IMG/VR virus record: IMGVR_UViG_2541047923_000007
DNA: 47,041 bases
Direction: 5' to 3' (one strand)
Origin: a virus
Taxonomy: Duplodnaviria > Heunggongvirae > Uroviricota > Caudoviricetes
Both the position numbers and the translations under genes were made by a program. Positions 14,858 through 16,543 of the stretch are shown piece after piece (position 1 is the first letter of the stretch; every line of letters begins with the position of its first letter). The notes below the pieces were generated by a model. It did not search any database and had not been told where the DNA came from. It worked only from the letters and a program-made list of their open reading frames with translations.

Positions 14858-14920
14858 CCGGTTCAGTGCAGCATTTTCAGCATTACGGCGTTTCTGTTGC
14901 TCCTGATAATTCCGCTCTGC

Positions 14921-16543
14921 CTACTCTTTTGCATCCTGCAAATCCTTCTGGCGTTTTTTCTCCTGAAGATCGTTAAGACGCTGCTGATCGTATTCAACCT
15001 GAGAAGATGATGCCGTCCAGGGGAGTCTTTTCGCCCGCGACACTTTCTCCTGTAAAGCGGCAATCTGTTCATCCAGCGAGTCTTCACGACCAATATTCAT
15101 GGCCGCATCCCAGAAACGACTCCACAAATCAGACAGATACTTCAGCGTACTGCCAAGCGCATTGAGGTTATTATCAATATCCGCAGTACGCCGACCGGTT
15201 TCCTCTGCCAGTGCAGACATGGCTATCCGTGCAGCATCACTGGACCGCCCCTGCTCCCCAAGGACGCGTATCTGCTCAAGCTGAGTGGCAGTAAGAAAAT
15301 GCAGCTCATTGTCCAGAGCCTTCGCGGCATTTACAGGATCATCCTTCAGCCGCTTAAACTGATTTATGGTATCGCTGACCGACTGGCCAACCGATCGCTC
15401 CATCTGTGCGGCAGCTCTCGCCACCATACCGATATCGTTTCCACGAAATGCACCACTCCCCACCACCTGAGCCAGCGCACCGGCTGCAGCATGTTGCGTG
15501 ATACCATTCCCGGAAATAGCACGACTGAGCGTCCACAGCTGCCCGGCAGTGACTCCGGCATAATGCCCCGTCAGCGACAACTGGCGGTTAAATTCTTCCC
15601 CCTCCTTCTGACCGTCATACCAGGCTTTACCCAGACCATAGACGGCCGCGGCAATACCGCCAATAACCCCGCCAAGCATCATGCCTTTCGGTGACATCAG
15701 TGTGTCTATCCATCCGGCACGGTTAGCCAGCGTTATCCCGGATCCCCTCAGCGCCCCTAAATTGCCGCGGGCCAGTTCACCTATCAGAACGCCTATCTCC
15801 TGGCGGGCTGCTGCACTTTTCAGACCCAGCGAATGCGTGGCTTTTCCTGCCTGCTCCATTTTGCGGATATACACTTCTGCAGCACTGCTTACCCCCAGCT
15901 GGGCTGCCTTAGCACGAAGCAACTCAGAAGATGAAAGATTCAGGCGGGTTGCCTGCTCTTTAAGCTGACGGATAAACGCCACTTTCTGTCGGGTAGCCTC
16001 TTCCTCAGCCTGTGTAAGAACACGGGTTTTCGCAGTAACCTCAGAAATCAGCGCCAGATAATCCTGCTGACCAATCCCGCCACTGTTTCTGGCCTGTCGG
16101 ATCTGCTGCTGAATACGCTGTAATTCCTGCAGCCCCGCACTGGCCTGTTTCACACTGTCAATCTGACGATAAAACGCAGCAGCCGCTTTATCCTGAGCCT
16201 CCGCCAGAGCCATGGCCTGCGCCTGTTCCTCGCGCATTTTCTGGCTCAGTGCCTCCATGCGCTGGCGGGTTTTCTCCACCTCGCGGGCCATGCGTTCATG
16301 AGCCTGTGCGTTCTTCTCCACCGTCTGCGCATGGACGGATGCGGCTGTTGCAGCCGAAGAAGCTGCCTGCGTTGTCTGCCGGGCGGCCTGAGTCTGACGC
16401 TCCATAAAACGCTGCATACGGGCAGAAGACCGTTCTGCATCGCTGGCTGCACCATTCAGAAGGTTTTTGATACGGGGAATTTCATTTTTAAACTCTGCCG
16501 CATCAATCCCCAAATCAATGACCAGGTTGGCTATCTGGTCCAT
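14921..16543 (-). CDS. H: Tail tape measure protein H, N-terminal segment (ends at in-frame TAG 14921-14923)
   Basis: ATG at 16541-16543 with GGAGGTG Shine-Dalgarno; N-terminus MDQIANLVIDLGIDAAEF resembles lambda H; terminated by TAG, with 21 sense codons before the next segment. Confidence 0.8.
   Translation of the reverse strand: MDQIANLVIDLGIDAAEFKNEIPRIKNLLNGAASDAERSSARMQRFMERQTQAARQTTQAASSAATAASVHAQTVEKNAQAHERMAREVEKTRQRMEALSQKMREEQAQAMALAEAQDKAAAAFYRQIDSVKQASAGLQELQRIQQQIRQARNSGGIGQQDYLALISEVTAKTRVLTQAEEEATRQKVAFIRQLKEQATRLNLSSSELLRAKAAQLGVSSAAEVYIRKMEQAGKATHSLGLKSAAARQEIGVLIGELARGNLGALRGSGITLANRAGWIDTLMSPKGMMLGGVIGGIAAAVYGLGKAWYDGQKEGEEFNRQLSLTGHYAGVTAGQLWTLSRAISGNGITQHAAAGALAQVVGSGAFRGNDIGMVARAAAQMERSVGQSVSDTINQFKRLKDDPVNAAKALDNELHFLTATQLEQIRVLGEQGRSSDAARIAMSALAEETGRRTADIDNNLNALGSTLKYLSDLWSRFWDAAMNIGREDSLDEQIAALQEKVSRAKRLPWTASSSQVEYDQQRLNDLQEKKRQKDLQDAKE

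Follow-up and report, generated by a model that had tools for sequence, protein, structure and literature searches.

The stretch of DNA analysed here, the 47,041-nucleotide IMG/VR virus record IMGVR_UViG_2541047923_000007 (hereafter the window), holds a lambdoid prophage of Escherichia coli whose tail length tape-measure gene, H, is interrupted by one amber codon. Positions 1-1272 belong to the host gene ydfJ and match that of E. coli ATCC 25922 at 100% identity, and the prophage extends from 1273 to the end, its arms being 99.9% identical to Escherichia phage mEp460_ev081 (LR597641.1, hereafter ev081). The element is full length (~45.8 kb); the cos end is found near 26030, and the integrase stop codon closes the window. 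The prophage occupies the rspB/ydfJ locus, where K-12 carries Qin. Among complete genomes, the nearest prophage is that of KE48, which also lies between rspB and ydfJ; many of the genes there are named after the K-12 cryptic prophage Qin. The tail genes are arranged in the order G, T, H, M, L, K, I, J, which is conserved in ev081, E. coli E2865 and KE48.

Gene H lies on the minus strand (13478..16543). Translation of window positions 16573-13478 on that strand gives one frame with a sole internal stop, and the true start is the ATG at 16543, eight bases after GGAGG. From this start the gene spans 3066 nt, or 1022 codons, an exact multiple of three as the first-pass annotation had stated, and it has the same length as the uninterrupted coding sequence of 1021 codons plus stop in ev081, E2865 and KE48; its position also matches the intact coding sequence in LR597641.1 and E2865. 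The amber codon TAG occupies 14921..14923 and stands at codon 541, where the translation runs ...KKRQKDLQDAKE, stop, AERNYQEQQKRRNAENAALNRMNETEAAR... (the same junction may also be written ...LQEKKRQKDLQDAKE, stop, AERNYQEQQKRRNAENAALNRMNETEAARHQ...). It is followed in frame by 21 sense codons (AERNYQEQQKRRNAENAALNR; 14858..14920), which are identical to those of the relatives and are ordinary H coding sequence, and these lead to Met563. Every detail of the earlier description, in which an in-frame TAG cut H and 21 sense codons separated it from the Met of the downstream segment, is borne out by this translation.

The stop divides H into an N-terminal fragment of 540 codons (14924..16543, minus strand), which matches Pfam TMP_2 (E 1.3e-49), and a C-terminal open reading frame (ORF) of 459 codons plus stop (13478..14857, minus strand), which opens at the ATG at 14857, is annotated as a gene of its own in a deposited genome and matches TMP_4 (E 3.8e-17) and Tape_meas_lam_C (E 1.5e-22). 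The amber therefore sits between TMP_2 and the two other domains, and translation ends after residue 540, so that TMP_2 is kept while TMP_4 and the lambda-type C-terminal domain are lost. Because both fragments carry tape-measure domains and the region is nearly identical to ev081, the split pair of ORFs is not a chance pattern. The identification of the gene as the tape measure H, proposed at first from the letters alone, agrees with the Pfam domains and with the G/T-H-M gene order, and the synteny with G and T establishes which tail gene this is. What characterises the lambda-type gpH family, namely its domains, its place between G/T and M and a continuous frame, is present here except for the last. 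Since the frame is broken at codon 541, the interrupted H is best classified as a pseudogene of this family and not as a functional member.

Over the 3096-nt stretch containing H, the window and ev081 differ at only one base, window position 14923, at which the coding strand of the phage has C and that of the window has T. Thus, a single C-to-T substitution, changing CAG (Gln541) to TAG, separates this gene from an otherwise identical intact homologue, which upholds the earlier claim of one nonsense codon rather than a frameshift. The KE48 prophage also has CAG at codon 541. A 61-mer centred on the stop matched 1,818 complete E. coli records at 1,969 places, none of them at 100% identity, so that each differed from it by at least one base. 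When the same flanks were compared with IMG/VR and the codon was left free, at least 120 contigs matched, with CAG in 120 out of 120. Thus, no homologue with a stop at the equivalent site was found in the comparison with related H genes that had been proposed as a check, and the exact TAG allele itself had zero matches in GTDB representative genomes, in IMG/VR and in JGI metagenomes. Taken together, these distributions indicate a stop that is derived, recent, rare and confined to one clone. The classical amber hotspot, deamination at the Dcm 5-methylcytosine site CCWGG to give CTAGG, does not apply here, as the ancestral context is GAGCAGGCA and not CCAGG. Literature searches concerning mEp460 and nonsense changes in the genes for tape measures yielded nothing specific to this locus.

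Both halves of the interrupted gene have been deposited. By exact look-up, the 540-residue N fragment is present as EQW80606.1/EQY45639.1 ('hypothetical protein') and the 459-residue C fragment as EQW80605.1/EQY45638.1 ('tape measure protein'), all under the name E. coli UMEA 3121-1; apart from these two NCBI accessions each, the exact fragments were found only in Logan contigs. A 1.21-Mb scaffold of GCA_000460215.1 carries the coding sequence of the N fragment, and so does a 13.5-kb Logan contig of run SRR958570, listed in 7 samples, which is an exact substring of window positions 13065-26543, TAG included. The locus in GCA_000460215.1 has both the TAG and the deletion in gene J described below, and differs from the window at four positions in lom (7265, 7416, 7424 and 7427). 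Because of these four single-nucleotide differences, the window must be a different assembly from GCA_000460215.1. The same cluster sets the window apart from ev081 and KE48 as well, which points either to gene conversion of this patch by a further copy of lom or to the collapsing of lambdoid prophages into one during assembly. Across the ~39 kb aligned to ev081 there are a handful of substitutions, and a 16-bp deletion in J is the only indel; with so few substitutions and no stray indel, the assembly is not error-prone. The H amber is accordingly most reasonably regarded as a real, clonally inherited mutation, and a random base-call error seems unlikely.

The tail-tip/host-specificity gene J (7964..11086, minus strand) carries a second private lesion, which cuts it to 1040 codons. 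The 16 bp TCAGCGATGATCATAA are absent at window 8010/8011, which puts the gene out of frame past codon 1025 of 1137 and ends it 15 codons later, removing the C-terminal 112 residues. The full 1137-codon gene is present in ev081 and KE48, and three IMG/VR loci with identical J flanks retain the 16 bp. With a query of 301 bases from J, the best listed E. coli genome matches span 317 bases at 95.0% identity, which means that the listed genomes carry the 16 bp; one of 2,107 E. coli records matched at 99% or more, and that record was outside the matches listed. By exact look-up the truncated J was found only as EQW80600.1/EQY45633.1, again from UMEA 3121-1. There are also two private non-synonymous changes on the minus strand, W195R in the portal gene (22618) and V413M in the large terminase gene (24275), the ancestral states of which (T and G) are present in 124/124 and 122/122 matches, respectively, among the IMG/VR loci fetched; neither change occurs in ev081 or KE48. 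One private synonymous change lies in L at window position 12990. With the lom patch excluded, the private events in the 24.7-kb structural arm thus comprise one nonsense, one frameshift, two missense and one synonymous change, a pattern that fits relaxed constraint, though the numbers are small. Judged against the relatives, the genes for integrase, excisionase, immunity, replication and lysis are undamaged, and so are the other head and tail genes. The locus thus combines what is expected of a recent nonsense pseudogene: a sense codon in near-identical relatives, an allele limited to one lineage, and further signs of relaxed constraint in the same module.

We consider it very probable, judging from sequence comparison, that H is a tail gene that has recently become a pseudogene, in an mEp460-type lambdoid prophage that is decaying at the Qin site of a clinical E. 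coli clone, and that the structural module of this prophage is drifting. A spontaneous C-to-T transition turned H codon 541 from CAG (Gln) to amber TAG in a clone that comprises UMEA 3121-1 and a near-identical second assembly and carries its mEp460/Qin-type prophage at rspB/ydfJ. Translation stops after 540 residues, and a product without TMP_4 and the lambda-type C-terminal domain could presumably not template the tail tube. In lambda, gpH acts as the ruler for tail-tube polymerisation and its C-terminal part engages the tip complex, and tails should not be able to assemble on an N fragment of half the length. The 16-bp frameshift in J removes the receptor-binding end of a second tail protein, and portal and terminase each have a missense change besides. 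Receptor binding by gpJ resides in its C-terminal ~100 residues, and this truncation should abolish adsorption. The structural module is most probably drifting under relaxed selection, as would be expected of a prophage that is transmitted vertically and is not under selection any more for making virions.

Such an element can probably still excise, replicate and lyse its host, and perhaps fill heads. Infectious particles should not arise from it unless the host also harbours another lambdoid phage that provides the tails or mends the genes through recombination; PMC3945230 reports such rescue of phage genes from defective prophages. Some points weigh against prophage decay or limit it. Most genes, including those for integrase, immunity, replication and lysis, are intact, which places decay at a very early stage. 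The expected loss of tails and infectious particles is extrapolated from lambda gpH and gpJ. Closely related isolates, or data shared in part, may underlie both NCBI assemblies and the Logan contigs. Furthermore, a suppressor in the host chromosome is possible, as the scan for tRNA genes covers the 47-kb window only. We see a small chance that a natural amber suppressor or mis-insertion of Gln makes low, conditional amounts of H, or that the knock-outs of H and J were selected as beneficial to the host. If the knock-outs were selected, a tail-less, non-infectious prophage that still confers immunity and carries genes would represent the first step of domestication.

The first-pass annotation had stated that full-length H needs suppression or read-through and that otherwise tails cannot be assembled. 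That need stands, and nothing suggests that suppression or read-through is in use, because the allele is restricted to a single clone, the window encodes no tRNA that could suppress the amber, and the stop is followed by no stimulatory structure. ARAGORN and Rfam found no suppressor tRNA (tRNA-CUA) in the window. The sole tRNA genes there are tRNA-Arg(tct) at 32263-32339 and a tRNA(cat) at 32440-32515 (together 32263..32515, minus strand), neither of which is an amber suppressor. Both lie on the promoter-distal side of the Q antiterminator gene, the sister prophage has an annotated tRNA-Arg and tRNA-Ile, and the two are rare-codon tRNAs typical of lambdoid phages. In the 127 nt 3' of the stop there is no stimulatory RNA structure, the minimum free energy being -29.4 kcal/mol versus a mean of -28.1 for shuffled sequences (z -0.42). 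TAG terminates 6 out of 55 genes in the sister prophage, and comparison of the whole arms with ev081 and KE48 revealed no other in-frame TAG.

It would nevertheless be tempting to regard H as a conditional amber, from which a host suppressor of the supE type (glnV-CUA) or another kind, or near-cognate read-through by tRNA-Gln, yields some full-length protein. Since the ancestral codon specifies Gln, suppression that inserts Gln would rebuild wild-type H. Few H molecules suffice per tail, and a purine after UAG favours suppression; in H the base that follows is G. We nonetheless regard this explanation as very unlikely. Apart from the absence of a suppressor tRNA from the window, efficient suppression would be costly when TAG ends 6 out of 55 genes of the sister prophage, the host is a clinical isolate and not a laboratory sup strain, and an allele private to one clone is not one maintained by selection. 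Moreover, suppression of the amber, however complete, would leave the particles non-infectious, because the private 16-bp frameshift deletion in J is not suppressible, and tails would still miss their receptor-binding end.

Another explanation is that the genome truly has CAG and that the T was miscalled or introduced in assembly. A single-base substitution seen in one clone only, in calls that rest on assemblies rather than reads, might arise in this way. However, the TAG is shared by GCA_000460215.1, which is a distinct assembly, by the two NCBI protein accessions and by the Logan re-assembly of SRR958570; the ~39 kb around it is nearly clean, and its lone indel is a neat 16-bp deletion, atypical of base-calling error. 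Thus, an artefact seems very unlikely to us. It is more doubtful still that the stop separates two functional genes, whose products of 540 and 459 residues, the latter arising by re-initiation at Met563, act jointly or each on its own. The two ORFs are indeed long and have been called as two genes, and the record of phage vB_EcoS-606R10 (ON470578.1, 10543-14049) also has H as two coding sequences, the length there being 3107 versus 3096 nt. Yet no relative has a stop at codon 541, and the H of vB_EcoS-606R10, the sole other split H in the phage collection, is broken elsewhere (at about codon 328) by an indel, so that there is no conserved two-gene architecture; that split is an unrelated lesion or an assembly error. 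Inspection of the sequence before the ATG at 14857 revealed no Shine-Dalgarno motif, and the tape measure works as a single continuous molecule spanning the tail tube. These points make a functional split highly improbable.

Programmed recoding, either as a regulated read-through site or as reassignment of TAG to Gln as in stop-codon-recoded gut phages, draws only on the coincidence that a late structural gene has TAG in place of a Gln codon, as is known from TAG-recoded phages, and we reject it as having virtually no chance of being correct, since the stop is unconserved in both the IMG/VR contigs (CAG in 120/120 of at least 120 matched) and the 1,969 E. coli genome places (no TAG), is the sole in-frame TAG relative to ev081 and KE48, has neither a tRNA-CUA in the element nor a downstream 127-nt fold better than shuffles to serve it, and lies among phage genes that use TAG as a normal terminator.

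Several other features of the element deserve mention. The tail assembly chaperone genes G (17239-16853) and T (16844-16515), both on the minus strand (16515..17239), adjoin H upstream and are identical to those of ev081; calls for neighbouring genes match Pfam Phage_TAC_2, Phage_tail_T and Phage_min_tail. The end of G (window 16853-16870) reads ...ACGCCGGAAAAGTCCTGA and lacks GGGAAAG, the canonical slippery heptamer of lambda G-T; if a G-T frameshift occurs, it must therefore use another slippery sequence, a point that has no bearing on the H amber. At the attachment end, window positions 1-1500 are 100% identical to the uninterrupted ydfJ of ATCC 25922, and the phage record matches already from 1273. 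As these two matches overlap, the phage must carry at least ~228 bp identical to ydfJ. Beside the cos end, the ev081 record has a 98-bp tandem duplication relative to the window (26072-26169), which may be an end-of-genome assembly artefact of that record.

The immunity and replication module (36117-42282) is a mosaic block that differs from those of ev081 and KE48 and is Rac-like. It includes genes for a helix-turn-helix repressor (40519-40938), a Cro-like protein (40180-40422), YdaT, DUF1376, a DnaC-like protein, DUF1627 and DUF977, and also holds a gene for the epoxyqueuosine reductase QueH (36120-36806) and SieB (41538-41993). At gathering level, Rfam matched the small RNA IS009 (3343-3541), a cspA thermoregulator (27862-28278) upstream of the prophage cold-shock gene, the small RNA STnc100 (31376-31566) and the sok antitoxin RNA of a hokD-type module (35878-36052).

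Prophage decay thus remains our explanation of the interrupted H. The finding is of an ordinary kind, not a signal of recoding, and it opens no mechanistic question. Its practical consequence is a correction of annotation, as the ORFs of 540 and 459 residues in UMEA 3121-1 are the two parts of a single pseudogene. In prophage-prediction tools the element would probably pass as intact, though no infectious particles are expected of it unaided. It also offers a clean, datable example of the earliest prophage decay, in which point lesions precede any large deletion, at the very site where K-12 has its Qin remnant.

Comparison with known systems places the locus more precisely. In having an in-frame TAG in a late gene where relatives have Gln, it resembles TAG-recoded phages and read-through sites, from which it differs in that the TAG is single and unconserved, is served by no suppressor tRNA and acts elsewhere in the phage as a real stop; membership in that group is rejected. 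Closer in kind are the H-am (sus) mutants of lambda, which have nonsense changes of the CAG-to-TAG type in the tape-measure gene. Such mutants are expected to make heads without tails unless an amber suppressor is present, and a Gln-inserting suppressor restores the wild type. However, they were selected in the laboratory and are grown on sup+ hosts, whereas the present amber is spontaneous, resides in a prophage of a clinical isolate and is found in a window with no sign of a suppressor. Among functional phages, mEp460, mEp460_ev081, Ayreon, Tritos and cdtI share 95-100% nucleotide identity over H and the same G-to-J order, but mEp460-like lambdoid siphoviruses differ in having an uninterrupted 1021-codon H, as shown for ev081 and the E2865 and KE48 prophages. 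The cryptic prophage Qin of K-12 shares the rspB/ydfJ site and the loss of structural genes while accessory genes stay intact, those named in the KE48 sister prophage being dicB, hokD, rem, ydfU, cspI, ynfN, gnsB, essD, rrrQ and rzpQ. Whereas Qin is a heavily deleted remnant, the present element is still full length (~45.8 kb) and bears lesions only at the scale of points; it thus represents a full-length counterpart of Qin at the first, point-mutation stage of decay.

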